Origin: an uncultured Alphaproteobacteria bacterium
GTDB lineage: Bacteria > Pseudomonadota > Alphaproteobacteria > Rhizobiales > Xanthobacteraceae
NCBI GenBank assembly: GCA_963811795.1
Contig: CAWESR010000001.1
Coordinates: 13,344 to 77,343 of the forward strand
Reading direction: 5' to 3'
DNA: 64,000 bases
This document shows, piece after piece, positions 8,564 through 56,129 of the stretch (within the stretch, counting starts at the first letter, position 1; every line of letters begins with the position of its first letter). A program made the translations under genes and the position numbers. The notes beneath the pieces are model-generated. The model made no database searches. It had not been told where the DNA came from and saw only the letters and a list, made by a program, of their open reading frames with translations.

Positions 8564-8795
8564 GGTTGTCTCCTGTTTGCTGGTCGTCTAAAGGCCAGAT
8601 GGGATTGGTTGGCCGATGTTGAAGACGATCCTAGGAGAGGCGCGCTGAACTCAACCTGAAGCTATTGTTGGCTGAAATTCATCCGGATGAGCAGATATTC
8701 ATAAAACTCAGGCGGCCTGGTGGCAGGCCGCCCAAGGTCATGAAAGGCATGCAAAACTGCGAAATTTATCAAACTGACAGGTTGGCTGTATCGCT

Positions 8796-9854
8796 TTAAT
8801 TCGTCAGCATGATGCGGCCGACGACCTTGCCTGCACGCAATTGATCGATCCATTTCTGGACATCGGCCATTGGCTCTTGCTGCATCGGTGTTGGCTTGAT
8901 CTTGCCGGCACGTGCCAACGCCATCAGTTCCTGCGCTTCCGTGAGCGTGCTTGTCATGAAGCCTTCGATGGTCATGCGCTTGTAAATCCACTGCACCATC
9001 GGCAGATTGAAATTTCCGCCCATCAGGCCCGACACCACAATCTTGCCACCGCGCGCCAGCACTGACATGGCAAAAGCCATCGATTTCTCGTTGCCGGCGA
9101 AATCGACAACCCCGTCGAAGCCGCCTTCGGTTTCCTTGACAATGCGTTTGGTAATATCGGCTTCCGATGGATCGTAAGCAATCGATGCACCGTTTTTCAG
9201 AGCAGTTTCGCGCGCTGAAGCGTTCAAGTCCGCCACCGAAATTTTCTGTTTGAACATCGCTTGTGCGAACGCAAGTCCCATCATGCCGACGCCGCCAAGT
9301 CCGATCAGCAGGAGATTGCGTTGGCGGGGACGATCGACGAGTCTCTTTAACGCGCCATAGGCCGTAGCGCCCGAGCACATGAGAGTGGCGGCCATCTCCA
9401 CCGGCAGCGGATCATATTCAAGCAGATATTTTGCATCCGGCACCAGGACGTGGCTCGCGAATCCGCCATCGATAGACACGCCGAGGAAACGATTGCGCGA
9501 GCAGAGATTTTCATCGCCGTTGAGGCAGTCGGTGCACTTTCCGCAACCGATCCACGGGAACACGGCGCGCTTCTTCCCGATCAAGCTTTTGTCGGCTTCG
9601 GGACCAACTTCTTCGATGATCCCGGCGATCTCATGCCCGAGCGTGAACGGAAGCGTCATGCCGCGCGTGGTGTCGAGCTTCTTGCCGCCGCCGAGATCAG
9701 CATAACCATCCTGGATGTGCAGATCGGAGTGGCATAATCCGCAACATGCAATACGCACCAGAACTTCGCGCCCTTGGGGCTTGGGGGTTTCGATAATGGT
9801 TTCGCAGAGCGGCGCATCGAATTTCACGAGCGACTGGCGGCGCATCACGGTCAT
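8796..9854 (-). CDS. zinc-binding alcohol dehydrogenase (MDR family)
   Basis: CHSDLH, GHE, CGKCTDC...C, GLGGVG motifs; start MTVMRRQ after RBS aagggg. Confidence 0.92.
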   Translation of the reverse strand: MTVMRRQSLVKFDAPLCETIIETPKPQGREVLVRIACCGLCHSDLHIQDGYADLGGGKKLDTTRGMTLPFTLGHEIAGIIEEVGPEADKSLIGKKRAVFPWIGCGKCTDCLNGDENLCSRNRFLGVSIDGGFASHVLVPDAKYLLEYDPLPVEMAATLMCSGATAYGALKRLVDRPRQRNLLLIGLGGVGMMGLAFAQAMFKQKISVADLNASARETALKNGASIAYDPSEADITKRIVKETEGGFDGVVDFAGNEKSMAFAMSVLARGGKIVVSGLMGGNFNLPMVQWIYKRMTIEGFMTSTLTEAQELMALARAGKIKPTPMQQEPMADVQKWIDQLRAGKVVGRIMLTN

Positions 9855-9867
9855 ATCAATTTCCCCT

Positions 9868-10731
9868 TTAAATGCTTTTGTCTTTTCCTGTTTTATCCGC
9901 CAATTCGCGTGCCATGGCAACAAAGCCGGAAACGGGAATGGTTTCAGCGCGGCGTGTCGGGTCGATACCGGCGGCAGCTGTGAGCGCTGCTGGATCGAGT
10001 CCAAGGGATTTCAGGCTTTGCCGCAGCATTTTGCGGCGCTGGCCAAAGGCGGCGGCAGTAATACGCTCCAGCGTGCGTTGATCGCATGGATCGGGCATTG
10101 GGCGCGGGATCAGCCGCACAACGGATGATGTCACCTTGGGGGGCGGCATGAACGCGTTTGGCGCGATATCGAACAGGATTTTTGTCTCCGTTCGCCAGTT
10201 CGACAACACGCTAAGACGCCCGTAAGCCTCATCGTTTTCGCGGGCGACGATACGCTCAGCCACCTCACGCTGGAACATGAGTACCATCATCTCGTACCAT
10301 GGCGGCCATGGCTCTACGCTGAGCCAGCCGACTAAAAGCGGCGTCGCAATGTTGTAGGGCAGGTTGGCGACAATCTTGGCGCGTTCGCCGCCGAGATGGG
10401 GGCGCGGGTCGAATGTCATGGCGTCCGCATGCACGATCTCGAGTTTGCCGGGATAATGTGCGGCGATCTCCTGCAGGGCAGGGATGACACGCTCGTCACG
10501 CTCAACAGCGATGACCCGCTTAACCCCCAATGCAAGCAAGGCGCGCGTCAGCCCCCCAGGACCTGGTCCGATTTCAATTACGGTGCAATCCTCTAATGGT
10601 CCTGCTGCGCGCGCGATCCGCGATGTCAGATTGAGATCAAGCAGGAAGTTCTGGCCAAGAGATTTCCGTGCTGACAGCTCATAACGCTGGATGACGTCGC
10701 GCAGCGGCGGAAGATCGTCAATGGCGCTCAT
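9868..10731 (-). CDS. rsmA: 16S rRNA adenine dimethyltransferase
   Basis: [34 protein letters not shown]; start MSAIDDLP overlaps the pdxA stop. Confidence 0.96.
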
Positions 10732-11744
10732 GACTTTGGCGGTGTCACACTCGTCCCGGCCATATGCGCGGCGAGGCGTAGTGCAGCTATGAGGCTCGAT
10801 GGATTGGCGCGCCCGGTGCCTGCGATATCGAAGGCGGTGCCATGGTCCGGTGAAGTCCGGATGAACGGCAAGCCAAGCGTGACGTTGACACCTTCGTCGA
10901 ATGCAAGCGTCTTGATCGGGATCAGCGCCTGATCGTGATACATACAGATTGCGCAATCGTAGGTCTTGCGCGCAGCCTCGTGGAACATGGTGTCGGCAGG
11001 GAGAGGGCCTTTGACATCGACGCCCTCGTTGCGCAGGACAGTAATAGCAGGCGCGATGATGGATTGATCTTCTTTGCCGAACGAGCCGTCTTCACCGGCG
11101 TGTGGATTGAGCCCGGAGATTGCCAGACGCGGTTTTGCAATTCCGAAACGCGTTTTCATATCTGCTGCGACAATGCGGGAAGTTCTGATAATCAGATCGG
11201 TTGTAAGTTGTGCAATGGCGTCGCGCAAAGCCAAATGAATTGTAACCGGTACTACTGCGAGTTGGGGTGACCACAGCATCATGACCGGCTGAGGTGCGAT
11301 GCCATTGACGCTTGCAAGCTCAGCAAGAAATTCGGTGTGGCCGGGATGCGAAAATCCGCTGCGGAAGAGCACGTTCTTGGCAATCGGATTGGTGACGACG
11401 GCACTCGCGCGGCCAGCGGTAACGTCAGTGACAGCCTGACGGATGGATGCAATGGCGGCAGGCGCACTGGTTCCATCCGGGTGGCCGGGCCGGGCGGTGA
11501 TGACGTGGTTGCTTGAAACGACGGGGAGCGCGTCAGCGAACAGGTTTGCAGCATTCTCAGGACTGGCGTCGGCAAGCGGCAGATCAATGCCGAGCATCTG
11601 TGCGCGCCGCGCAAGGAATGCTTTGTCGCCGATGAGATAAAAAGCCGGGATGCCCAGTTCGCGCCTGCGCATCCACGTCGCAATCGTGATATCCGGCCCG
11701 ATGCCAGCCGGTTCACCGATCGTGAGCGCAAGAGGTTTGGTCAT
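10728..11744 (-). CDS. pdxA: 4-hydroxythreonine-4-phosphate dehydrogenase
   Basis: [42 protein letters not shown]. Confidence 0.97.
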
Positions 11745-12833: not shown

Positions 12834-15323
12834 TTACTGGGTTGTTCCGATTGTTTGCGCAATAGAAGTGCTGCCAATCGTCCGTAGTCCAATCTGCAAC
12901 ATGACACGGTGATCTGTAACGGGGGTCAGGTTGGTTGTGGTCGTATAGGCATAGTCGGTGATGTAGTTGACTGCCATGATGAAGCAATCGTCCACGTAAC
13001 CCGCGCCAACGAGGTATTGATTGACCTTCTGGTTGCTGAGGTCATAGCGCAAGCCACCCGAGACGACCCAGTTTGGCGCGACCTTGATCGATCCAGTGCC
13101 AAGAATGCCTTCACGACGAGTGAGGAAGCCGAGCTCCGGCTGTTGGTCATAGTTGCCATACAGCATACTGACTGACCAGCGGTCGAAGTTGGCTTTACCT
13201 TCCAGTTCGAAGCGGCGAACGTATCCGGTTGCTTCATCCAACCGTACGCGGCTGGAAAGGTTGAAGGTCCTGTTTGGTTGATATGAGATGCGACCGACGT
13301 AATCCGATTTCGCGGTTTCAAGGCCAGTGTCGAGGCCGGTGTTGGTGAGGTCTTGCACGGCAAACGAATTCAAACCGAACAATTGATAGGATTGGCCAAA
13401 CATCACATTGATGGAGCCTCCGTGATCGAATTGCGTCGTCGCCTGGACACCGACGTTGGCGCGGCCACCACCTTCGGTGCGATCCCAGCCGGAAAACTTG
13501 TCAACGCGGAAAAGGTTGCTGTCATCGTAAGTCAGGCTTTGGGCATCTTCATTGGGGAGCCGACCTGCTTGCGCTTCATTGGGACGGATGATGATCTGTG
13601 CGATAGGCTCCAATGTTGTGGTGCCCCAGGGCTGCACGTTGATGAACGGATAGCGATACTCAAGTCCGACCGTTGGCATGATGTGCCCAATTTGGGTCAG
13701 GCCGGTTGCCGTATAGTTTGAAACGCCAGGTTGGTTCGCGATATCCGTGCTGATGAGGTCCGAGCGGATCGAAGCGAATGGCGTGAAGATTTGCCCCATC
13801 GGATCCGTGAACGAGCGACGCCATGCGGCTAGACCGGAAAGCCGGGTGTAGTCACCCGGCACGCCGCGCAGCAAACAGTTCGCGGGATTTTTTGCCGCTG
13901 GATCGGCCGATGTCGGCAAACACAGGCCGGTGAGGCTTGCTTCTGTTGTGATCGGATCGAAGGCAGCAGTATCGCGGCTCAGGCTTGTGAAGTTTGCCTT
14001 GTAGCTGAATTCGCCACCGATCAGATTGCGATTGAGGATATTCGAATAATCGATGACCGGGTGCACAACAGGAATCTGGCTCTGAACGTCAGCTGCCGAA
14101 TATCCCTGAAAGTACATGACGCGCCCGTCGAAGTAGCTACGATTGCCCACGCCGGTGAGATAGATTTGTGACAGCCCGGTATCGGGCACCAGTAGAAATG
14201 AGCTGAGTGCGTTTTTGTAGGGACCAAGGTTGTAATCCTGGAAGAACGCTTTGTCCGTGGCCGCGACAGCATCCCAGCCCCAGACCCACCTATCGTTCAG
14301 GGCAAATTGGCCCTTTGTGTCCACGCCGCCCCGGAAATCCCGATTGCCTGGCTCGGCGCCGAACTTGTCAGGGTTCTCTTGCTTGATGCCATAGGCGCGA
14401 ATTTCATAAGCGCCATTGATGAGGCGCTGGCGGAACTCGCCCTGCATCAAAACGCCTTGCTGTGTGGTGTAGCGTGGTGTCAGCGTCAGGTCATAGTCGG
14501 GTGCGAGCGCCCAGTAGAACGGCGTTTCCACGCCGACACCGTAGCGCGAGTTCGACATGAAGTCCGGGGTCAGAAAACCTGTCTTGCGCTTTACGGTTGG
14601 ATCGGGAGTCGAAAAATACGGCATGTACGCAATCGGCAAACCGAAGAACTCAAGCCGTGCGTCCTCGAAGTAAAGCATCTTCTCGGTCTGGTTATGAATG
14701 ATGCGCGCGGCCTTCACCTGCCATAGCGGGGGCTTCTTCGGATTGTCCTTGCATGCCGCGCAGGCCGTATAGACACCGTTTTGGAAAATGGTGACGTCGC
14801 CATTGCTGCGGTCTGCGCGTGACGCGGCCATACGGGTCTGATCGGGCGTCTCTAACCGCAATGAATCGACGAAGCCGTCGCGGTAATCATCGCTGAGATC
14901 GAGTGCGACCGCGTTGGTGACCCTGCCGTCGGCGTCGGTCAGGCGGACGCTGCCTTCCGCGTGAAGACGCTTGGTCTTTTGATCGTAGATGACTTTATCG
15001 GCTTCGAGCGTTGATCCGTGGAAGTAGATCTGTACGCTGCCGACCGCGGCCACGCGGGAGTTGTTGTAATCGTAATTGACCTCAGCCGCCTGCACGAGCA
15101 TCTGGCCGTCATTGGCTTTGTTGGGGGGCTTTGCAGGCCGAACCGGTGTCGGACGGGGATTGTAGTTATAGCCTTGGGCAGCAACTGGCGATGTTGGGAG
15201 GCCACTCAGCGGTCCTGCCAAAACCAGCGCCAGGCATGCAGGCGCAAGGATGCGATGGCAGCGCAAACGTATGCGCCGCCTGAACGCAGGCGTCAGTCTT
15301 TGGAGGGCGGCGACAATGGCCAC
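12834..15323 (-). CDS. lptD: LPS assembly protein LptD
   Basis: OstA-type N-domain, YTACAAC, DPTVKRKTGFL, PNEDAQS, YVDDC; GTG start overlaps the lptG stop. Confidence 0.93.
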   Translation of the reverse strand: MAIVAALQRLTPAFRRRIRLRCHRILAPACLALVLAGPLSGLPTSPVAAQGYNYNPRPTPVRPAKPPNKANDGQMLVQAAEVNYDYNNSRVAAVGSVQIYFHGSTLEADKVIYDQKTKRLHAEGSVRLTDADGRVTNAVALDLSDDYRDGFVDSLRLETPDQTRMAASRADRSNGDVTIFQNGVYTACAACKDNPKKPPLWQVKAARIIHNQTEKMLYFEDARLEFFGLPIAYMPYFSTPDPTVKRKTGFLTPDFMSNSRYGVGVETPFYWALAPDYDLTLTPRYTTQQGVLMQGEFRQRLINGAYEIRAYGIKQENPDKFGAEPGNRDFRGGVDTKGQFALNDRWVWGWDAVAATDKAFFQDYNLGPYKNALSSFLLVPDTGLSQIYLTGVGNRSYFDGRVMYFQGYSAADVQSQIPVVHPVIDYSNILNRNLIGGEFSYKANFTSLSRDTAAFDPITTEASLTGLCLPTSADPAAKNPANCLLRGVPGDYTRLSGLAAWRRSFTDPMGQIFTPFASIRSDLISTDIANQPGVSNYTATGLTQIGHIMPTVGLEYRYPFINVQPWGTTTLEPIAQIIIRPNEAQAGRLPNEDAQSLTYDDSNLFRVDKFSGWDRTEGGGRANVGVQATTQFDHGGSINVMFGQSYQLFGLNSFAVQDLTNTGLDTGLETAKSDYVGRISYQPNRTFNLSSRVRLDEATGYVRRFELEGKANFDRWSVSMLYGNYDQQPELGFLTRREGILGTGSIKVAPNWVVSGGLRYDLSNQKVNQYLVGAGYVDDCFIMAVNYITDYAYTTTTNLTPVTDHRVMLQIGLRTIGSTSIAQTIGTTQ

Positions 15324-16405
15324 TACCCGTCCTCCTGATACAGCAAAGCCAAAAATCCGGAGAGGCCACCTACGAAAACAGGCAACCACGCCGCCGCGAG
15401 CGGATGCATCAATTCAGCCTTGCTCAAATCCTCGGTTACTTTCGATAGGACATAGAGCAAAAAGCCAGCCGCAACGCCACTCAAAACCATCTTTTGAACA
15501 CCGCCGAAGCGGAAGAAGCGAAGGCTCACGGCAGCCGCCAGCAACACCATCGCAGCCAGCAAAAATGGGCGTGCGAGCAGCTTTTGATACTGCAAGCGAT
15601 AACCAGCCGTGGCTTGTCCGGAGTTTTCTGACGAGCGGATGTAGCCCGGCAGTTGCCAAAATGACACAGTTTCAGGTGTGGAAAAACTGTTCCTGACCTG
15701 AGCAAGGGTCAAACTCGTTCCGAGGACGTAAGTCTCTTGCTCAACCATCGGACTGTCCAGAGCGAAGCGCCGGACTTTTTTGAAGACCCACTGCCCAGGT
15801 TCCAATGATGCTTCACGCGCCTCGATTCGCTCTTTGAAGGGACCCGCAGGGTCGTACCTAAACACCGTCAAGCCGCTCAGCCGAAGTCCTTGCTCCTGAC
15901 TTCGCACAGCATTGATGATGGTCTGTCCTTCGCTGGTGGTCTGGTTGATCCAGAATCCAGCTGCATCCTGCAGTCCACGATCAAGAAAGATTTTTGTCTC
16001 CATTTCCTTGGCGCGTTCTTGCATGCCTGCGGAAAGGGGATTGTAAACAGCAGTCGCCAGCAAGCCGAGCGCGAGCGCGCTCAAGAGCGCTGGAGCGATG
16101 AATTGCCACGCGGATATTCCCGCAGCTCGCGCTACGACTAACTCTAACCGCCGCGACAGCGTGAGATAGCAGGACATTGCGCCAATCAGGATGCAGAACG
16201 GCATCAACCGCTCCAATGATAGCGGTACCCGGAAAAGCGAAGTTTGTGCGACGAACAGCGCCGACACGGAGGCAATGCTTGCGGCACGACGCATCAACTC
16301 GATGTAGTCGACAAGAATGATCAGAACAAAAATGCTCACGAAGACAGCGATGGAAGCCACCACAAAACGGCTGGCGAAGTAGCGTGCGAGGACAGTTGTC
16401 ATCAT
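15323..16405 (-). CDS. lptG: LPS export ABC transporter permease LptG
   Basis: LSRRLELVVARAAGISAWQF, multiple transmembrane segments, AAAWLP. Confidence 0.92.
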   Translation of the reverse strand: MMTTVLARYFASRFVVASIAVFVSIFVLIILVDYIELMRRAASIASVSALFVAQTSLFRVPLSLERLMPFCILIGAMSCYLTLSRRLELVVARAAGISAWQFIAPALLSALALGLLATAVYNPLSAGMQERAKEMETKIFLDRGLQDAAGFWINQTTSEGQTIINAVRSQEQGLRLSGLTVFRYDPAGPFKERIEAREASLEPGQWVFKKVRRFALDSPMVEQETYVLGTSLTLAQVRNSFSTPETVSFWQLPGYIRSSENSGQATAGYRLQYQKLLARPFLLAAMVLLAAAVSLRFFRFGGVQKMVLSGVAAGFLLYVLSKVTEDLSKAELMHPLAAAWLPVFVGGLSGFLALLYQEDG

Positions 16406-16418
16406 GGGCGCCGCCGCT

Positions 16419-17580
16419 TCATGCTGACACCGGCCGTGGGGTAAAGCGCGCGACCCAACCATTGATGAACTCCATCAACATGGTTGGCGCTTCGATCACG
16501 ACGCCACTTGAAATAATCCAGATGCCGCCGCAGCAAGCTGTCGCCAATATAAAATATTGGATCGGAGCGGCGAGCGGCGACGAGGCGGCCAGAACGGAGC
16601 ATGCAAAGCCAACAAATCGCAAGGCGCTGATGGCCAGGACTGTGGAGGCGATCGCAAAGCCCCGGCTTTGGCGGGTCGTGCGCGGCGCGCCGAGAAATGC
16701 AAATGTCAAAATAACGAAGGCGAACGGATAGAGCGGCGCAACAATACGATCATGAAATTCGGCGCGGAATTGTCCCGGCGATTGCATGAACAAAGGATCG
16801 TTGGCAGGTGGCGAGATCAGCTCCCAGAAGTAGCGTTCGCGAACATTGTAGTTCACGTTCTGCGTGAGCTTGGCATATTTCGACATGTCGAACGCATGGC
16901 GTCCGAAGGCGACGAGGATGGGGTCACGCTTGCCTTCCTCGAACCGTTGAAAGTTGCCGTTGTCGAGCACGAGGAATGTGCCGGTATCGTTTTTCAGGAC
17001 AGTGCCTTGCTCAGCGATGATGGTGATCCGTTCCTTTGGATCGCGACGATCGTCGACAAAGATGCCGGCCAATTGACCGCCAGGGCGGCGTTCGCGCACC
17101 CGCAACGTGAGATTGGAATCAAGCTGCGTGAAACGTCCCGGCACAAGAATGTTGGAGATGATGTCCGCGGTGATCTCGGTGTCCCAGCGTTTCAGGCGGC
17201 GCATGCCATCGGGGGCGAGATAGGCCGCGATGAAAGCAACCATCAGGGCGACGACAATCGTTGCATACATGAATGGACGGAACAGCGCCCATGGTTGCAT
17301 CCCTGCGGCATTCATCACGATGATTTCTGAAATCATGTGCGAGTTTGTTGAGGGTGTGTGCGACTGCAATCACGAGCGCTATCGGCGCGATCACAAGCAC
17401 CAGAAGCGGAATGGCCAAGCCTGTCACGCCGAGAAACACCAAAATGGTCTGACCCTGGCTGGTCATCAGGTCGATGCCGCGCAACGCTTGCGTGATCCAG
17501 ATCACGCCCGTCAGGCTGACCAAGACCAACGCAAACGACGCAAGCGTCGTCCGGAAAATATAGGCGTCAATCGACCCCAT
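16419..17580 (-). CDS. lptF: LPS export ABC transporter permease LptF (frameshift near 17330)
   Basis: MGSIDAYIFRTT...LNKLAHD in one frame, SEIIVMNAAG... in the next. Confidence 0.9.
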
Positions 17581-17919
17581 CGAGCAGCGATATCCCCAAC
17601 CCCAGAAATCACCGTCGTGCCGGACCCTGGATAAGGATCCCCCTAGGCATGACCGCATTTCGCGGCATTAATATTTCACAGCATCTCTTTGATTGGTCAA
17701 CAAAATGGCCGTGCTGAGGCCGTGTATAAGATGTAGTTAATAAATCCCTGTGCGTGACTTTCCTGCCACGCCGGAAAATCGCAAAAGACCAGTTCCTGCC
17801 GTGAAAGGCAGGTTGTGGCGCGCTTGGCAGGTCAATGCAGGAAAGGCGATAGTGGGTTTACCCAGCCCGCCAATTCTGTTTCTTGCTGCTTTAGCTGCTT
17901 AATTTTGGAGGATTCGCTT

Positions 17920-45246: not shown

Positions 45247-45283
45247 GGGGTGTGGATGCGGGCTGAGGCACCCGACTATCCCT

Positions 45284-45320
45284 CGTCATGGCCGGGCTTG
45301 ACCCGGCCATCCACGTCTTT
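45284..45320. repeat. CGTC-type REP element
   Basis: cgtc-atggccggg-cttga-cccggccat-ccacgtcttt, resembling the REP units common in Bradyrhizobiaceae. Confidence 0.7.
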
Positions 45321-45325
45321 GCCGA

Positions 45326-45651: not shown

Positions 45652-45670
45652 ATCAGTCATTTTGACTGAT
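45652..45670. promoter_or_regulatory. palindromic operator candidate
   Basis: atcagtca-ttt-tgactgat in the AT-rich divergent intergenic region. Confidence 0.5.
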
Positions 45671-45700
45671 TTCGTATTTATCGAGCAAAAATATCTATAT

Positions 45701-45931
45701 ATGACAAAAATGTCAATATCCCCTGCGCAATGCCGGGCCGCCCGTGCCTTGATCGATATGGGGCAGGCTGACTTGGCGGCAGCGGCTGGCGTGTCGCGGA
45801 ATGTCATTGTCGATTTTGAAAAGGGACGCCGCACACCACATCAAAACAATCACGCTGCGATCCAACACGTATTGGAAAAAGCAGGTGTTGAATTCACGGG
45901 TGGTGCGAAACCAGGCGTGCGATTGAAGTAG
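45701..45931 (+). CDS. XRE-family helix-turn-helix regulator
   Basis: ISPAQCRAARALIDMGQADLAAAAGVSRNVIVDFEKGRR, LEKAGVEF...GVRL. Confidence 0.85.
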   Translation: MTKMSISPAQCRAARALIDMGQADLAAAAGVSRNVIVDFEKGRRTPHQNNHAAIQHVLEKAGVEFTGGAKPGVRLK

Positions 45932-45966: not shown

Positions 45967-47277
45967 CTATTGACTTGGGTTTTGGGAGGGCGATTTTTCA
46001 ACTAATTGCGCAGAAGGTTGCCCCATCTTCGCAGGAGAGATTTGAGCGATGGCCGTTTCGGCTAATTCTCGCACTTGAATGGCAAAATTTGGTACAGACC
46101 TAAGTGCTTCTTTTACTAGACTAGAATTTGCGAATTCATTCCATGGACTGCCATGGTTTTCTGTTTCCACCAAGCGAAGAGGAAGTTCGTCAAGTCGAGT
46201 GAGTGCAGAATTGAGGAGCCGAGCTTCCATTTCTTTGTCAATCCGAGCTGCCTCACGGCGAAAGCCCTCATACGCACGGGCAATAGATGCCTTAAAGGCG
46301 TAGTCTTCGGAAAGTTTGAACCGTTGACCGATCTGTTTAGTCGATAGCCAAGCAAACCAAACTGGGGCGCCAACCGAGAGTATAGACAAAATCAAATTCG
46401 GAATGATCATCGATGCAGATAGGTTTGGATCTTTAAACAATTCGACCAAAATTTGAAGACGCCCGATTCCGAAAAAGCTGGCCGCAGCAAGAGAGCTAAT
46501 TAATCCGGCGACCCATATCCACATCGATGTTGAAAGACTTGAGGAACGCTCGGTGAATGCAGCGGCTAACCCCACACTTGTTGCTGCTGAGTAGGCGGTT
46601 TCACAATTCCTGAGCACTGCTTTTGCTTCATTGGCGCTTTGGTTAAGCTGTTTATCGAGTTCTTCCGCCTGCTCGCGAATTCCAAGAAGACGACCTTGGT
46701 CCTTTGTTGCCTCCTGAACAATCTTATCGACCTTTTGCTTTGCCTCGGCCAATGACTCTAAGTCAGTCGGAAGTTGGTCGGCTGCATTGTACGCACGCTC
46801 AATCGCATCAACCATCGTGGTCATAGATGCAGCGCGAGGTTCAAGCCCTGTCACTCGCGCTTCTAACCCACGAATTTGCTCTGTCAATTTTCGGAGTTTA
46901 GCGATCGCTTCTCTCCGTCTGTCTCGATTTAAAACAGGTGCAAGCGCCTTCCGAAGGCCTTCCAATGTGAACATGTAAGTCGGTACGGCAACCGCCGCAC
47001 TGCCCCACAAGTTAGGAATTGTATTCTGGTGGAGATGTTGAAGGCGGCGGATATAGTCAGTCAGCTTCGCTTCGTGCTCTCCAACCTCATCGGGGCCATC
47101 ATCTCTGATCAGGTCGATTATTGACTGCGCTTCGGCAATTAGCTCGGCACGATTTAAGCCCGGAAAACTCCAGTTGTTGTGTGCGTTGCCGAATGGTTCG
47201 TCACTTGGAACAACAGAGCGTAATTGATTGATGACTGCATCAAGTTGTTGATGAATACTTATGAGTGATTGATGCAT
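45967..47277 (-). CDS. hypothetical coiled-coil protein with two C-terminal-half transmembrane helices
   Basis: 436-aa ORF with lower GC; heptad-rich middle, TM segments WIWVAGLISSLAAASFFGI and LILSILSVGAPVWFAWL, then EDYAFKAS. Confidence 0.8.
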   Translation of the reverse strand: MHQSLISIHQQLDAVINQLRSVVPSDEPFGNAHNNWSFPGLNRAELIAEAQSIIDLIRDDGPDEVGEHEAKLTDYIRRLQHLHQNTIPNLWGSAAVAVPTYMFTLEGLRKALAPVLNRDRRREAIAKLRKLTEQIRGLEARVTGLEPRAASMTTMVDAIERAYNAADQLPTDLESLAEAKQKVDKIVQEATKDQGRLLGIREQAEELDKQLNQSANEAKAVLRNCETAYSAATSVGLAAAFTERSSSLSTSMWIWVAGLISSLAAASFFGIGRLQILVELFKDPNLSASMIIPNLILSILSVGAPVWFAWLSTKQIGQRFKLSEDYAFKASIARAYEGFRREAARIDKEMEARLLNSALTRLDELPLRLVETENHGSPWNEFANSSLVKEALRSVPNFAIQVRELAETAIAQISPAKMGQPSAQLVEKSPSQNPSQ

Positions 47278-47409
47278 TTTCCACCATAGTGATCAAAGTA
47301 AAACTAATAGGTGAGGGCTTTTAAGAATTGTATTTTAATACATAGCTCGTCTACCTTAGCTCGCATTCACCCTTCACGATCACCTCACCGCGCGCGATAT
47401 CGGCTGCCC

Positions 47410-47529
47410 TCACGAACACTCCGTCGTGCTGCCACACGCGGTGCACTTCATGCAGGTGCCGTTGCGCACAAGGGTGAAGTTGCCGCACTCGGAGCACAGA
47501 TCCCCCTCGTAGGCTTTCGCCTTCGCTTC
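47410..47529 (-). repeat. direct repeat, copy 2 of the nrdJ 3' end
   Basis: 103/120 nt identical to 48200-48319 by manual ungapped alignment. Confidence 0.93.
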
Positions 47530-48189
47530 CTTGTCTAATCTTTGTTGCTCGATATCCAAGCTGGTAATTTTAGCGCCGCCTTTTTTCGCATTTTCAAGAA
47601 AGCTGACAATACTTTTTGGTAGAGGACGTGGAAGATTGTGAGCGCGTCGATAAAGTCGTTGAAGCTCCTCGAGTTTAATTTCTGCGGCCCTCGTGCTAAG
47701 TCCAAAACGATCAGCAAGATCGCTGGCATGTGCGAGTAATGGATTTCCTGCCAAATAAAGTGGAGCGAGAAATGCCGCCGCGAATTTATCAGCGTCGCTT
47801 TCGTCCCGCATTATCGAAGGTGCGATTTTCTCAATCGGCCGGCCAGATATGTTGCGGTGACGAGTTTTCTTATGTCCAAAAACGACATGGCCTAACTCGT
47901 GAGCAATTGTGAAGCGCGCGCGTTTCGTTGCCGGATTCTGGTCAATAACTTCATTTGCTGCTACGAATGTACTCTCGCGAAGGCGCATTATTCGTCTGTC
48001 AGGATCGAATGCTCCGAGATCCTCTGGCATTTTATGGTCGGGGACTTTTTCGTAGCTGGCAATCATCCCGAGTTGCTGGAGCTTGAATAAGACCGTGACC
48101 ATATCTGGCTGCAACTGGTGTTCAATGCCCAGTTTTCGCCGAGTAGCTCGCGCAACTTCTTCAAAATCTTCGTCTTCGCGATGTCTCAT
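47410..48189 (-). CDS. ImmA/IrrE (M78/DUF955) family metallopeptidase fused to a copy of the NrdJ C-terminal Cys-rich tail
   Basis: [10 protein letters not shown] (HEXXH), [12 protein letters not shown]; ends [39 protein letters not shown]; ATG at 48189 with RBS gaagggg. Confidence 0.88.
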
Positions 48190-48199
48190 TGTTGCCCCT

Positions 48200-48319
48200 T
48201 CACGAACACCCCGTCGTGCTTCCACACGTGTCGCACTTCATGCAGGTGCCGTTGCGCACCAGGGTGAAGTTGCTGCATTCCATGCACATGTCGCCCTCGT
48301 AGCCTTTGGCCTTTGCTTC
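48200..48319 (-). repeat. direct repeat, copy 1 (native nrdJ 3' end)
   Basis: encodes [39 protein letters not shown]. Confidence 0.93.
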
Positions 48320-51300
48320 CGCGCGGCGTTCGGCTTTCTGATGGCGCTGGCTGCTGCGGCTGATCCGCCTTGCTCCAGCCTTGGGCTTCCAGCTTTTCGG
48401 TCGGAGAGAGTTCGCGCTCCGGCTCTGCGGTTTTCAGCGCGGTTGCGCCTTCGGCCACGTCACTGTGCCGCGCGGTCGCGCCGCTTGACGCAATCGCGGT
48501 GATGTTGCTGGCCGCGCGCGCATCAAGGTCCGCGCCGCCGCGCATCACCACGAGCTTGTCGGTGCGTGAGCGGGTGAGGCCCTTTGAGAGATATTTCGTC
48601 GCGGCGGCGTTGCTCTCTTCCGGAGCGCGGCCTTCCTCGACTCCCTTGCCAAGCGCGTCGAACTGTCCTTCGGACGGATCGACATGGGCGAGATCGAAGC
48701 GCGACATGTAGCTTACCGCGAGTTCGCGGAACACGTAGTCGAGGATCGAGGTCGCGTACTTGATCGAGTCGTTGCCCTGCACCGGACCCGCAGGCTCAAA
48801 GCGGGTGAAGGTGAAGGCATCGACGTATTCCTCCAGCGGCACGCCGTATTGCAGGCCGAGCGACACCGCGATGGCAAAGTTGTTGATGAAGGAGCGCAGC
48901 GCCGCGCCTTCCTTGTGCATGTCGATGAAGATCTCGCCGATGCGGCCATCGTCATATTCGCCGGTGCGCAAATAGACCTTGTGTCCGCCGACCACAGCCT
49001 TCTGCGTATAGCCCTTGCGGCGGTCCGGCAGCTTCTCGCGCTCGCGCATCACGACGATGCGCTCGATGAGTTTCTCGACGATCTTCTCGGACACCTGCGC
49101 GGTACGTGCCGCCATCGGCTTGTCGTAGAACGACTCGATCGCGTCATCGTCCTCCTCCTCGTCGGCAGATGAGCTGCGAATTCAGCGGCTGCGAGAGCTT
49201 CGAGCCATCGCGGTAGAGCGCGTTGGCTTTCAGCGCCAGTTTCCACGAAAGCAGGTAGGCGGATTTGCAATCCTCCACCGTGGCATCGTTCGGCATGTTG
49301 ATGGTTTTGCTGATCGCGCCCGAGATGAATGGCTGCGACGCCGCCATCATGCGGATGTGGCTTTCCACCGAGAGATAACGCTTGCCGATTTTGCCGCAGG
49401 GATTGGCGCAATCGAACACGTTGTAGTGCTCGGCCTTGAGATGCGGCGCGCCTTCCACCGTCATCGCGCCGCAGATGTGCACGTTGGCGGCTTCGATCTC
49501 GCGCTTGGTGAAGCCAAGGGCAGTGAGCAGGTCGAAGTTGGCGCGGTGAGGGCCTCGAGGCGATGCCGAGATTGTCGCGGATGAAATCTTCGCCGATCGT
49601 CCACCTGTTGAACACGAACTTGATGTCGAACGCAGTCGGCAGTGCCTTCTCGATCTTGGCAATCGATCTCGTCGGTGAAGCCTTTGGCCTTCAGCGTCGA
49701 ATGGTTGATGCCGGGCGCTTGCGCCAGCGAGCCGTGGCCGACTGCGTAGGCCTCGATCTCGGCGATCTCGCTCTCGCGATAGCCGAGCGTGCGCAAGGCT
49801 TCGGGCACGGCGCGGTTGATGATCTTCCAGTAGCCGCCGCCGGCGAGCTTCTTGAATTTCACCAGCGCGAAATCAGGTTCGATACCTGTGGTGTCGCAGT
49901 CCATCACCAGGCCGATGGTGCCGGTCGGCGCCACCACCGTGGTCTGCGCGTTGCGGAAGCCGTGTTGTTTGCCGAGTTCAAGCGCCTTGTCCCATGCGGC
50001 CTTGGCGTGCGTGACGATGTCGGCCTGCGGGCAGCTTGCATGATCGAGCGGCACGGGGCTGACTGACAGCGCTTCATAGCCCGAGGCCTCGCCATGCGCG
50101 GCACGGCGATGGTTGCGGATCACGCGCAGCATGTGGCTCGCGTTTTTCTTGTAGCCGGGAAGGTGCCGAGCTCCTGCGCCATTTCGGCGGAGGTTTTATA
50201 GGCAACGCCGGTCATGATCGCGCTCAGCGCGCCGCACAGCGCGCGGCCTTCCTTCGAATCATAGGAAAGGCCCATGGTCATCAGCAGGCCGCCGATGTTG
50301 GCGTAGCCAAGGCCGAGCGTGCGGAATTCATACGAGAGTTCGGCAATGGCTTTGGATGGGAATTGCGCCATCATCACCGAGATTTCGAGCACGACAGTCC
50401 AGAGCCGGCAAAGATGCTCATAGGCTTCCACATCGAAGCGGCGTGCGGTCGATGTCGTAAAACGTCAGCAGGTTCGCCGAGGCGAGATTACATGCCGTGT
50501 CATCGAGGAACATGTATTCGGAGCAGGGGTTCGATGCGCGGATGTCGCCGGACGCCTTGCAGGTGTGCCAGTCGTTCATCGTGGTGTTGAAGTGCAGGCC
50601 GGGATCGGCGCTCGCCCATGCGGCGTAGCCAATCTTTTCCCACAGGTCGCGGGCCTTCAGCGTCTTCATCACCTTCTTGCTGGTGCGGCCGATCAAATTC
50701 CAGTCGCCGTCGGTCATCACCGCGCGCAGGAAGTCGTCCTTCAACGACACCGAATTGTTCGAGTTCTGGCCGGCGACGGTGAGGTAGGCTTCTGAATCCC
50801 AGTCGGTGTCGTAGGCATCGAACTGGATTTCGGTGTAGCCCTGCCGGGCAAACTGGATCACCCGCTTGATCATGCCGTCGGTGACCAATGCACGGCGCGC
50901 GAACTTGATCTCGCGGCGGAGTGCGGGGTTTTTCTCAGGATCGAAGCAGTCGTCGCCCGAGCCTTCGCAATTCACGCAGGCTTTCAGAATAGCCTTGAGG
51001 TGTTTCTGGTTGATCTTGGAGCCGGTGACGAGGGCTGCAACTTTCTGTTCTTCCTTCACCTTCCAGTCGATGTAGGTCTCGATATCCGGGTGATCCGCAT
51101 CGACGACCACCATCTTGGCCGCGCGGCGTGTGGTGCCGCCGGATTTGATCGCGCCCGCCGCACGGTCGCCGATCTTGAGGAAACTCATCAGGCCGCTTGA
51201 GCGGCCACCGCCGGATAGCTTTTCACCTTCACCGCGCAGACGGGAGAAGTTGGAGCCGGTGCCCGAGCCGTATTTGAACAGGCGCGCCTCGCGCACCCAC

Positions 51301-51950
51301 AGGTCCATGATGCCGCCCTCGTTGACGAGGTCGTCGTCCACGCCCTGAATGAAGCAGGCGTGCGGCTGCGGATGCTCGTAGGACGATTTCGACTTGGTGA
51401 GCTTGCCGGTTTTCCAGTCCACATAGTAGTGACCCTGTCCCGGTCCATCGACGCCGTAGGCCCAATGCAGGCCAGTGTTGAACCATTGTGGTGAGTTCGG
51501 CGCGACCATCTGCTTGGCCAGCATGAAGCGCAGTTCGTCATGGAAGGCGTGCGCGGCTTCTTCGGAGGTGAAATAGCCGCCCTTCCAGCCCCAATAGGTC
51601 CAGCAGCCAGCGAGGCGGTCGAACACCTGCTTTGACGACTGTTCGCTACCGAAGCGCTCAGATTCGGGCAGGGCGGCAAGCGCTTCGGTGTCTGGTACCG
51701 AGCGCCACAGCCATGACGGCACGGTCTCTTCCTCGACCTTTTTCAGAATCTTGGGAATGCCGGCTTTACGAAAATACTTTTGAGCGAGCACATCGGAGGC
51801 GACCTGCGACCAGAACTCAGGCACTTCAACGTCTGCAAGATGGAAGACCACCGAGCCGTCGGGGTTGCGAATTTCACTGGTTGTCAGGCGGAATTCGATT
51901 GCCGCGTAAGGTGACTGACCGTCTTTTGTATATCGCCGTTCGATTCGCAT
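48200..51950 (-). CDS. nrdJ: vitamin B12-dependent (class II) ribonucleotide reductase with TSCPD-type domain; at least 6 apparent frameshifts
   Basis: MRIERRYT start, [61 protein letters not shown]; indels near 50448, 50156, 49668, 49550, 49168, 48340. Confidence 0.93.
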
Positions 51951-52293: not shown

Positions 52294-52340
52294 CGTCAAG
52301 GTTTAGTATTAAATCCTGAATCAAACACTAAATATGGTGG
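52294..52340. promoter_or_regulatory. tandem NrdR boxes upstream of nrdJ
   Basis: acactaaatatggtgg (52325-52340) and cgtcaaggtttagtat (52294-52309), 31 bp apart, versus consensus acaCwAtATaTwGtgt. Confidence 0.7.
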
Positions 52341-54081: not shown

Positions 54082-55023
54082 ATGCCCTTCAAACCGCGTA
54101 ACATGTTCCAAACCGCCGCCAAAACTTTGATCGCAGGTTGTCTTGCGGCGTTACTGATGCCGCTTACGGCACCCTCATATGCGCAAATCGGCAATATCTT
54201 TTCCGATCGTCCTCGCCCGCCCGTAGCTGTTCCGCGTGGTGGAGTGTTGCAGGATGAGGAAGAGGAGGAGGTGCCGGACTTGCCGGCGCAGGGACGGCTG
54301 TTGCCGACGCCTAATCGGCCGCCACCCGGTCAGGCTGTGCCGCCGCCCGGTGCAGTTCAATCTCAGCCTTTGCCGCCGCCGCCCGGTGCATCTCCGCAGG
54401 GCCAACCGCGTTTGCCAGGGCAGGGGCCGGATACTGCAAATGCGCCTTCGCAGGCAACGCCCTTGCCAGGACTACCGGCAGGTCAGCGACAACCACGCAG
54501 TGCACCACCTGCGCCAGCAACCTTGCAGCCCGGTGATGAAGTTGTGACTGAGCCGCCGGTCCAGAAAATCACGAACAAACATGCCGTGTTCTCGGGTTTG
54601 GACAAGATCACGGGGCGCATCATCAAATTTGATGCCGAGGTTGGAGAAACTGTGCAGTTCGGCGCATTACGCGTGAAGCCGCAGGCTTGCTATACGCGCC
54701 CTTCCACGGAGGCGGCCAACACCGACGCATTCATCGAAGTCGATGAGATCACGTTGCAGGGTGAGGTGAAGCGGATTTTCTCGGGCTGGATGTTTGCTGC
54801 CAGTCCTGGACTTCATGGTGTTGAACATCCGATCTATGACATCTGGCTGACAGAGTGCAAAAACCCGGACACTGCCGTTGCTACACAGGCAGATCAACAA
54901 AAGCCGGCAGCGCCACAAGTGCAGCAGAAGCGGCAACCGCCACCGCCACCCGCAAAACAACAGCCTGCGCCGCCACCGCGACCGCCGCTGCCACCTGCGA
55001 GTGGATTTCCGCCACCTCGCTAA
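54082..55023 (+). CDS. DUF2155 domain protein with Pro-rich linkers
   Basis: AVFSGLDKITG, FSGWMFAASPGL, EHPIYDIWL. Confidence 0.88.
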   Translation: MPFKPRNMFQTAAKTLIAGCLAALLMPLTAPSYAQIGNIFSDRPRPPVAVPRGGVLQDEEEEEVPDLPAQGRLLPTPNRPPPGQAVPPPGAVQSQPLPPPPGASPQGQPRLPGQGPDTANAPSQATPLPGLPAGQRQPRSAPPAPATLQPGDEVVTEPPVQKITNKHAVFSGLDKITGRIIKFDAEVGETVQFGALRVKPQACYTRPSTEAANTDAFIEVDEITLQGEVKRIFSGWMFAASPGLHGVEHPIYDIWLTECKNPDTAVATQADQQKPAAPQVQQKRQPPPPPAKQQPAPPPRPPLPPASGFPPPR

Positions 55024-55162
55024 GCCTTTTCACAGTTTGAATTTGGTCGTGGCCTGTTTTTCTCCTAGTGCGCCCCGATCGGAAGCGGAAAGTTATTGTA
55101 ATCGCCGGTGCGCGATCATGATTATTTGGGATGATTTTTCAAAATTGTTGACGATTTGTTGC

Positions 55163-55177
55163 GAACGAATCATGAAT
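55163..55177 (+). promoter_or_regulatory. candidate alphaproteobacterial LexA (SOS) box
   Basis: GAAC-gaatcat-GAAT, just downstream of a TTGACG -35-like hexamer at 55148. Confidence 0.45.
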
Positions 55178-55216
55178 ATTGCGGGTAGCACTACCCTTAA
55201 CTGTGAGACTCGAGTG

Positions 55217-56129
55217 ATGGAAATGAGCCTCTTGGAACGTGGATACGTCGATTTCCTAACCGGGATTCAGGACCGGGCACTGCCACCACTCCGGGTGGTG
55301 AATGTGTCGCAGGTGCGACAACTGAGCCCGTTCCGCTACCCCGGAGGCAAGACGTGGTGCGTCCCGCAGGTGCGCCATTGGTTCGTCTCAACAACAGCGC
55401 TTTGGAATTTTGATCGAGCCATTCGCCGGCGGTGCCAGCATTTCGCTCACGGCGGCTGTTGAGGATTGGGCCGACAAAGTCGTCTTTGGTGAACTTGATC
55501 CTCACGTCGCGGTTGTTTGGAAGGTTATCTTTGGGCGCAGCGAGGACGATGCCCGTTGGCTTTGCCGACAGATTAAGTCGTTTCAAATGACCAGAGATGA
55601 AGTCGTAAGACGGTTAGCTCTGCCGGCACGATTGAACAAAGAAAAAGCATTCCGAACCATCTTGCGCAACCGAAGTACAACCGCGGAGGCATCATGGCCC
55701 CCGGCGCAAGTCTCGTTAAGGCGGGCGAGAGATGGTAAGGGAATTGGCTCGCGCTGGTATCCTGCGACATTGATCGAACGGATAAGAACAATCCGAGAGG
55801 AACGCGCCAAAGTATCTTTTTTTGCCAAGGACGCCTTTGAAACCATTGCCCAATTTAAAGATCGAACTGACGCCGTGTTTTTTATCGATCCACCTTATAC
55901 GGCGGGTGGCAAGAATGCTGGATCGCGCTTGTATTCTTGCAACTCGATCGATCACGCTAAACTCTTCGCTGCTATGAGCGAGATAAAAGGCAAGTTTATG
56001 CTGACATATGATGATAGCGCTGATGTCCGGTCACTGGCAGAGAGGCATGGGTTCGCGGTGAATATGGTTCCGATGAAATCAACTCACCACACGGTTCACT
56101 ATGAACTTCTGATCACGAAAGCCGTATAA
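55217..56129 (+). CDS. Dam-like (D12 class) DNA adenine methyltransferase; several indels
   Basis: SPFRYPGGK, IEPFAGGAS, FIDPPY, LTYDD; frame break near 55390-55410 and three compensating insertions near 55670-55730. Confidence 0.88.

Follow-up and report, generated by a model that had tools for sequence, protein, structure and literature searches.

We analysed a stretch of 64,000 nucleotides (nt) from an uncultured alphaproteobacterium of the family Xanthobacteraceae (contig CAWESR010000001.1, hereafter the window), in which a gene encoding an HEXXH peptidase lies directly behind nrdJ and ends in a copy of the cysteine-rich tail of the NrdJ protein, a ribonucleotide reductase (RNR). The reading that we favour, and to which we assign a probability of about 0.6, is that this gene forms a cassette of about 790 bp, with no second gene and no recombinase, lodged in the end of nrdJ, and that its product is a CapP/ImmA/IrrE-type protease presumed to act in trans. 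The duplicated tail looks like the footprint of recombination at a defence hot spot rather than evidence for a redox sensor. The function, i.e. that of a CapP/ImmA-like signalling protease co-expressed with nrdJ and acting in trans, is suggested by analogy and by gene position. The features on which this reading is built are, in the numbering of the window:

48200..51950, minus strand: nrdJ, class II B12-dependent ribonucleotide reductase, in at least 5-6 frame segments (Pfam PF02867 pieces, frame mapping)
48197..48320, minus strand: repeat copy 1 (tail 1), the nrdJ coding end with its zinc ribbon and redox cysteines, plus stop codon (direct repeat, alignment, translation)
48190..48199, minus strand: 10-nt junction AGGGGCAACA from the nrdJ stop to the peptidase ATG, Shine-Dalgarno-like (sequence)
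47410..48189, minus strand: peptidase open reading frame (ORF) of 259 amino acids (aa), with M78 domain, helical domain, linker and zinc-ribbon tail (translation, Pfam, AlphaFold2)
47671..47946, minus strand: M78 catalytic domain, residues 82-173, with HELGH and the ESDADKFA motif (Pfam, translation)
47531..48189, minus strand: low-GC cassette core between both tail copies, about 48-50% GC (composition profile; comparison with L248, which is without the core)
47407..47530, minus strand: repeat copy 2 (tail 2), NrdJ-type tail read as the peptidase C-terminus, 62% GC and thus nrdJ-like (direct repeat, translation)

The nrdJ end is present twice

The last 39 residues of the peptidase are identical to the C-terminal end of NrdJ at 32 of 39 positions, are in frame and finish at the same stop position, and all six cysteines are present with the NrdJ spacing C-x2-C-x10-C-x2-C-x2-C-x5-C. 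In the DNA, this likeness is a direct repeat (47407-47530 and 48197-48320) identical at 106 of 124 nt (85%), far above chance. Homology to NrdJ begins at EAKAK, about 40 residues before the peptidase end, and the N-terminal part of the protein is M78; the complete NrdJ Cys-rich domain, which is 150-220 aa long, is not present in the peptidase, only its last ~40 aa are. These features bear out the captured, in-frame tail copy that an earlier note on this DNA had reported, and the ORF, the Pfam match and the HELGH motif likewise confirm its ImmA/IrrE-type peptidase directly downstream of nrdJ. The same note was aware of no described counterpart of this architecture, and no paper mentioning nrdJ and ImmA together was found in the literature searched.

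The peptidase ATG (48187-48189) lies 10 nt past the nrdJ stop codon (TGA, 48200-48202) and is preceded by AGGGG, and a terminator scan found none in the gap between the two genes. Base composition changes along the locus, from 60-65% GC in nrdJ to 48-50% in the core and 62% in the tail. Beyond the peptidase, 20 bases past its stop, 24 nt (47370-47393) resemble, at 79% identity, the last bases of the nrdJ tail with its stop and AGGG; this stretch could be either chance or a remnant of an older tail copy.

The insertion read against related genomes

In the related genome L248, nrdJ is followed directly by a 432-aa homologue of a 436-aa gene of the window (described below), and the peptidase is absent. 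Aligned with L248, the window falls into two colinear blocks, 51995-48199 and 47530-46123, which overlap in L248 by the 122-nt nrdJ tail. Relative to L248, the window has gained 790 bp, i.e. the peptidase core plus one extra tail copy. A second comparison is provided by L239, of the same genus as judged by its nrdJ tail, the peptidase of which is 82% identical to that of the window. The stretch shared by the two runs from tail 1 through tail 2 and 3 nt past the stop (48304-47407), and beyond it L239 carries unrelated DNA followed by the operon of a cyclic-oligonucleotide-based antiphage signalling system (CBASS). Since sharing is limited to the tail 1-tail 2 stretch, the conserved unit is the bracketed cassette and not a module of peptidase and cargo. 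No integrase, transposase or recombinase gene was found within about 8 kb of the insert, the neighbours of which are housekeeping genes and which itself consists of one ORF. Thus, the origin of the gene as a recombinase-free peptidase cassette inserted in the nrdJ tail is well supported.

Loci L106 (1003-3010) and L118 (1156-3087) each carry two distinct M78 genes in tandem behind nrdJ, the first with an NrdJ-like tail and the second tail-less, as expected if a tailed cassette inserted before a resident peptidase gene.

The peptidase resembles CapP and IrrE

The 259-aa product matches Peptidase_M78 (Pfam PF06114) with 33.7 bits, above the cut-off of 22. HELGH (47887-47901) corresponds to residues 97-101, and T94, H97, E98, H101, R112 and E130 are invariant in 58 homologues. 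The AlphaFold2 model has a mean predicted local distance difference test score (pLDDT) of 87 and is confident for residues 1-210, with the tail at 60-74. Foldseek returned CapP (7T5T), an XRE-M78 regulator of M. tuberculosis and PprI/IrrE as top solved matches, covering about 180 residues, and the best PADLOC match of the peptidase is capP (9e-14). No GAF domain was found in the peptidase: the helical domain is followed by a linker helix and then by the zinc ribbon, which runs to residue 259. Nor was a CapP-type cysteine-switch loop, all six cysteines being located in the last 28 residues and the core being Cys-free. By analogy with these proteins, the peptidase is most likely a CapP/ImmA/IrrE-type signalling protease.

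Relatives of the peptidase recur behind nrdJ

A protein search returned about 90 relatives of the peptidase, and there are 34 clusters of HEXXH peptidases ending in a CxxC...CxxC tail. Occurrence in genomes was counted with a family-level search, which replaced a broad-alignment scan of species genomes that was swamped by distant M78 genes. Of 400 genomes of the host family, 31 contain a relative; the count is 0 of 14 for the same genus and 1 of 400 for the rest of the class. The GC content of these genes is 45-55%, that of the host nrdJ genes 60-69%. Genome and metagenome loci pooled, 36 of 51 informative loci had the peptidase behind the nrdJ stop according to a script, and with three loci missed by its strict pattern this becomes about 39 of 52; in 22 loci, the peptidase starts 60 nt or less from the nrdJ stop. 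The position behind nrdJ holds even for peptidases only 26-30% identical to that of the window, for tail-less forms and for forms split into two ORFs. Away from nrdJ, tail-less relatives are carried by Microvirga megaplasmids. Phage records and viral contigs yielded distant M78 genes and phage nrdJ tails only, and the nrdJ-peptidase pair was not found among them.

As the earlier note had proposed, the tail was used to look for non-RNR proteins fused to it: among proteins of 142-454 aa, M78 is the only recurrent partner. Three singletons on contigs of about 1 kb (P0252, P0258 and P0324), in which unrelated N-termini are joined to varying lengths of the NrdJ C-terminus, look like chimeras and were set aside. 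Locus L115 (1078-2109), considered as a non-M78 protein with a captured tail, was rejected as such: the gene, directly after nrdJ, encodes an M78 relative in which EETGH replaces HEXXH. A further domain of roughly 120 aa is present, the C-terminus is still an NrdJ-type tail (...CPECREFNVIHDGNCFTCECGWSTSVS), and the protein may be a catalytically dead derivative.

The forms split into two ORFs make up a large subclade (P0056-P0089; 27 tree rows), in which an M78 protein of about 150 aa ending in ...FLAPAHLA is followed by a helical protein of 62-84 aa, with stop and start overlapping or about 10 nt apart. Examples are L013 (7124-7769) and L014 (7135-7786), both directly behind nrdJ and tail-less, one of them from a SPAdes assembly.

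The 3' end of nrdJ is a defence-gene hot spot

Five genomes of the same genus that lack the peptidase diverge from one another immediately past the nrdJ stop. Varied cargo is present at the same site in related genomes, with boundaries at the conserved flank, as in a hot-spot cassette. The neighbours of tail-bearing peptidases differ as well: they are PDC-M50 and ThsB-TIR genes in L007, an AriAB/OLD/GajA-like ATPase in L240 and CBASS in L239, while L142 and L145 have no neighbouring cargo and the peptidase is their only low-GC gene. In one alphaproteobacterial family, the nrdJ 3' end is a hot spot at which CBASS, TIR, PARIS/OLD-like and other defence genes are found.

At the same spot in peptidase-free same-genus genomes, low-GC genes are found in L133 (10640-11851) and L134 (7043-7855), one encoding a pentapeptide-repeat membrane protein and the other a trypsin-like protein matching the defence candidate PDC-S45. 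A search for short att-like repeats flanking the alternative cargo in two same-genus genomes gave none that were convincing.

The two tail copies exchange sequence and the tail turns over

Differences between tail 1 and tail 2 are unevenly distributed along the repeat. They number 15 in the 5' half and 6 in the 3' half in the window, 21 and 3 in L007, and 3 and 17 in L239, respectively. The two tail copies of L007 share silent variants that the orthologous locus L240 lacks, and in L239 the peptidase tail has an unusual TTT codon that is also present in the nrdJ of this locus. Tail 2 of the window differs from tail 1 at 21 of 126 nt and from orthologous peptidase tails at 34-35, the orthologous cores being 80-82% identical to that of the window. 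This mosaic pattern, small as its numbers are, would fit crossovers or gene conversion between adjacent direct repeats.

On a longer time scale, tails have come and gone. In a tree of peptidase cores, the NrdJ-like tail must have changed state at least 11 times given the well-supported branches, and parsimony requires 17 changes for the presence or absence of any tail. Some tail-less forms (P0031, P0021 and P0027) end inside the NrdJ-derived linker, e.g. ...AEAKARGKGK, and are therefore truncations.

In NrdJ, the cysteines C1, C2, C4 and C5 bind zinc, C3 and C6 form the redox pair (Loderer 2017, PMC5704485), and all six are fully conserved (PMC5704485). The 34 tail-bearing clusters were picked by their four zinc cysteines; among them, C3 is kept in 8, C6 in 11 and both in 7, and P0004, the closest same-genus relative, is already without C3. 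Constraint on the tail was gauged by region-wise mean pairwise protein identity. In the window clade, this is 0.70 for the tail and 0.84-0.86 for the core, and in the Bradyrhizobium clade 0.53 and 0.78-0.88, respectively. The values for an older clade, with tails ending in TGDD, are 0.62 for the tail and 0.55-0.56 for the core, and here the GC content of the tail has fallen towards that of the peptidase gene. In old clades, identity of the tail with NrdJ is down to about 40%. The tail would thus arrive as recombination baggage, shed NrdJ-specific constraints, and then be truncated or settle as a generic zinc-ribbon domain.

A model for the cassette

The boundaries of the insertion, the duplication, the lack of a recombinase nearby, the recurrence of the layout in many genomes and the mosaic exchange are all observed. 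We infer from them that the cassette entered through recombination in the terminal ~122 nt of nrdJ, which would leave the nrdJ tail sequence present twice, the upstream copy completing nrdJ and the downstream copy being read in frame as the peptidase C-terminus. Integration may have occurred by a single crossover of a circular molecule made of core plus tail or, alternatively, by a double crossover in which nrdJ served as the left and the second tail as the right arm of homology; recombination between the direct repeats could also remove the cassette again. The likeness of peptidase and NrdJ is explained by this recombination history, because the tail brackets the 790-bp insertion and is mosaic with the nrdJ tail. 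Once in place, the tail would be kept as a zinc-ribbon end domain where CapP and IrrE have a GAF domain, so that the zinc cysteines stay while the redox pair is dispensable. Since the start codon lies 7-30 nt past the nrdJ stop in many loci, the peptidase is probably made from the nrdJ transcript. Its proposed substrate, attacked in trans, is a repressor of the XRE type or some other protein, and the peptidase gene stands at the head of a hot spot for defence genes.

Several points weigh against this model. Neither an excised circle nor an empty site was seen in the same population, so that the route of recombination is read back from its end products, co-transcription with nrdJ from gene position, and a CapP-like mode of action is suggested by analogy. 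There is no conserved adjacent helix-turn-helix (HTH) partner, no homologue of the XRE gene of the window (see below) was found in the peptidase loci scanned, and solitary cassettes exist (L142 and L145). Tail-less relatives occupy the same site behind nrdJ; the tail is therefore not needed for residence there. Conversely, the tail is in frame far from nrdJ in L012, within Tn7-like cargo by an AIPR/AbiU gene, and in L242, beside an Hma-like system. Its persistence in frame away from nrdJ points to a role at the protein level, which the model defines loosely. Finally, the tail of the TGDD clade is as conserved as the catalytic region, and so is no mere scar.

Other explanations for the tail

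Firstly, the tail could be a decoy: as a mimic of the NrdJ end, it would bind a phage factor that attacks the RNR tail, and binding would switch on proteolysis and the neighbouring defence genes. Sensor proteases would then have repeatedly copied the end of a phage-targeted essential enzyme, with gene conversion against the adjacent nrdJ keeping the match. Such homogenisation with the host's own nrdJ tail would indeed keep decoy and target alike, tail-bearing peptidases do adjoin CBASS, ThsB-TIR/PDC-M50, AriAB/OLD-like, AIPR and Hma-like systems, and the tail stays in frame away from nrdJ. A decoy has also been proposed for a bacterial sensor related to nucleotide-binding leucine-rich repeat proteins (PMC11702601). 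However, the cassette is not linked to any particular cargo, the neighbours of close relatives being unrelated and some cassettes solitary, and tail-less relatives hold the same position. Moreover, in the window and Bradyrhizobium clades the tail has changed faster than the core, in old clades it has drifted to ~40% identity with NrdJ, and we know of no phage factor that targets the NrdJ tail. On balance, we regard a decoy as unlikely.

Secondly, the peptidase could be directed at NrdJ itself, the tail docking it on the NrdJ core or on NrdJ oligomers, in the place where the tail of NrdJ itself normally works, so that it would process, inhibit or monitor the reductase. The tight, operon-like placement directly after nrdJ in 22 loci speaks for this, as do the solitary cassettes, which have no other partner gene. 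In addition, PMC5704485 reports that the tails of NrdJ can work across subunits and that oligomers are favoured by its Cys-rich domain. Tail-less relatives are, however, just as tightly placed, and other relatives, on plasmids of Microvirga or within Tn7 cargo, are remote from any nrdJ. We regard an NrdJ-directed enzyme as unlikely as well, although such a role is conceivable for the solitary cassettes.

Thirdly, the earlier note had suggested that the tail could serve as a redox or redoxin-recruiting sensor that couples stress in deoxynucleotide (dNTP) supply to proteolysis; its cysteine pair would be oxidised and reduced as in NrdJ and would thereby control the peptidase. In the window copy, the six cysteines are all present with NrdJ spacing, and all six are required for NrdJ turnover supported by tris(2-carboxyethyl)phosphine (TCEP) (PMC5704485). 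Yet a redox relay is contradicted by the loss of the redox pair in most clusters, only 7 of 34 keeping both cysteines and P0004 already lacking C3. The copied part is only the last ~40 aa of a 150-220-aa domain, and the characterised NrdJd is reported not to have interacted with thioredoxins or glutaredoxins. A sensor also fits poorly with tail-less relatives at the same site, with a tail gained and lost many times, and with a tail that is the very DNA bracketing a 790-bp insertion and mosaic with the adjacent nrdJ tail. We consider a redox sensor very unlikely.

Lastly, the duplicate tail might have been created by a false join, as could be suspected from the indels of this error-prone metagenome assembly, from the frameshifts in nrdJ and in a class I RNR gene, and from the junctions, which no public run covered. 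Such an artefact is effectively refuted by the same layout in several independent assemblies, Illumina-based ones included, and by the 18 of 124 positions, mostly silent, at which the tail copies differ, which argue against a collapsed or duplicated read.

Reading frame of nrdJ and quality of the assembly

The source genome is 67% complete, with 16 contigs and 2.05 Mb. Its nrdJ is 84% identical at the nucleotide level to the intact nrdJ of L248 and contains at least 5-6 frame changes that the earlier note missed, one of which lies between body and tail, near 48370-48420. A second RNR gene (class I, PF02867; contig 4: 19615-21221) is interrupted by one frame change, and further long genes of the window are split, e.g. 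8662-11744, 15323-17658 and 54082-56129. The frame shifts are probably sequencing indels of an indel-prone long-read metagenome assembly, although nrdJ may instead be a pseudogene, and widespread gene decay is a less likely alternative for the split genes as a whole. No public run contained more than one fifth of the sampled words, no RNA dataset was listed as containing them, and the contigs of four runs were fragmentary and left the junctions unbridged. The arrangement of nrdJ tail, peptidase and tail nevertheless recurs in the independent assemblies of L239, L007-L009, L240, L106 and L118, so a misassembly of the second copy is very unlikely.

Upstream of nrdJ, about 375 nt before its start, stands CCACCATATTTAGTGT (52325-52340), which resembles the NrdR-box palindrome at 13 of 16 positions. 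No nrdR gene was found in the source genome, 67% complete as it is. If the NrdR-box-like sequence is real, expression of the cassette would be tied to dNTP status.

Relation to known systems

Conceptually, the cassette comes nearest to core-gene-flanked hot-spot cassettes and to C-terminal displacement; as a protein, the peptidase is closest to the CapP/IrrE family. CapP (CBASS-associated, 7T5T, with its partner CapH) and IrrE/PprI (with DdrO) share with the window peptidase an M78 HEXXH peptidase followed by a helical domain; they are its best structural and PADLOC matches, and its relatives stand beside CBASS and other defence operons. It differs from both in having a zinc ribbon of about 35 aa where GAF stands and in belonging to a family without a conserved adjacent HTH substrate of the kind of CapH, DdrO or ImmR. 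It differs from CapP, in addition, in a core without cysteine, hence without the cysteine-switch loop, and in its place behind nrdJ, whereas CapP is divergent from the defence operon. For CapP/IrrE-type proteins, activation by single-stranded DNA has been described (bioRxiv 10.64898/2026.05.16.725639). In these proteins, a groove for single-stranded DNA is built jointly by the C-terminal GAF domain and the peptidase domain.

The tail has the six-Cys pattern of the NrdJ Cys-rich domain in the window copy and the four zinc ligands in all peptidase tails. NrdJa+b provides a precedent for a tail with a gene of its own behind the catalytic one (PMC5704485). The peptidase, in contrast, has only the last ~40 of 150-220 residues, fused to it, the redox pair is lost in most peptidases, and the nrdJ of the window keeps its own complete tail.

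As for mobility, minimal mobile elements and core-gene-flanked hot spots exchanged by homologous recombination are known from Neisseria. The cassette resembles them in lacking a recombinase, in the variable cargo right after a conserved core gene and in differing among genomes. Unlike them, it brings a second copy of the flanking homology, hence direct repeats of 122-124 nt, and this copy is translated in the product. In C-terminal displacement of Rhs and CdiA, a new module is recombined onto a conserved gene end and the duplicated end is left downstream. Here, however, the nrdJ end is restored unchanged, there is neither a new toxin tip nor an immunity gene, and the downstream copy is fused to the incoming ORF and is not an orphan. 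Integrative elements that use 3' ends (attP matching a tRNA or gene end) likewise have direct repeats of the target end flanking the insert and leave the target gene intact, but the cassette is without integrase, is 790 bp long and holds one gene. Its repeats are long, diverged (85%) and mosaic, which is like homologous recombination and unlike site-specific integrative elements.

In this light, the cassette would represent a simple form of gene mobility without recombinase, in which a copy of the end of a conserved essential gene allows crossing in and out in related genomes and a borrowed coding end becomes a new protein domain. At the nrdJ 3' end, CapP-like proteases seem to be coupled to transcription of nrdJ, which offers a testable connection between stress in nucleotide supply and the control of immune genes. 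At the same time, the case is a caution that "capture" of a domain beside its donor gene is no evidence of shared function.

Neighbouring genes and other elements of the window

Two further genes lie downstream of the cassette:

45967..47277, minus strand: 436-aa coiled-coil and membrane protein of a widespread uncharacterised family (homologue search, L248 comparison)
45662..45931, plus strand: XRE-family HTH gene (Pfam HTH_3; PADLOC control protein 1e-13, capH 5e-6)

Homologues of the 436-aa protein number more than 1800 and are spread over Alpha-, Beta- and Gammaproteobacteria; the best 120 are 60-75% identical, and no Pfam domain was detected in the protein. The L248 copy, 75% identical, stands directly behind the intact nrdJ. 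As read from this comparison, the gene was resident before the cassette arrived and is separate from it. A Klebsiella homologue lies between hsdS and hsdR in a type I restriction-modification operon, with GmrSD adjoining, and the 436-aa protein is probably an uncharacterised defence or abortive-infection gene product. The XRE gene is 1.5 kb from the peptidase and absent from L248; its product is a possible candidate substrate of the peptidase, in this window only.

An Rfam scan of the whole window gave no family at threshold. A hairpin element of about 38 nt at 45283-45321 (core GGCCGGGCTTGACCCGGCC), downstream of an FMN-reductase gene, has dozens of matches at 90-100% identity in same-genus genomes and looks like an intergenic repeat of the repetitive extragenic palindromic (REP) type.

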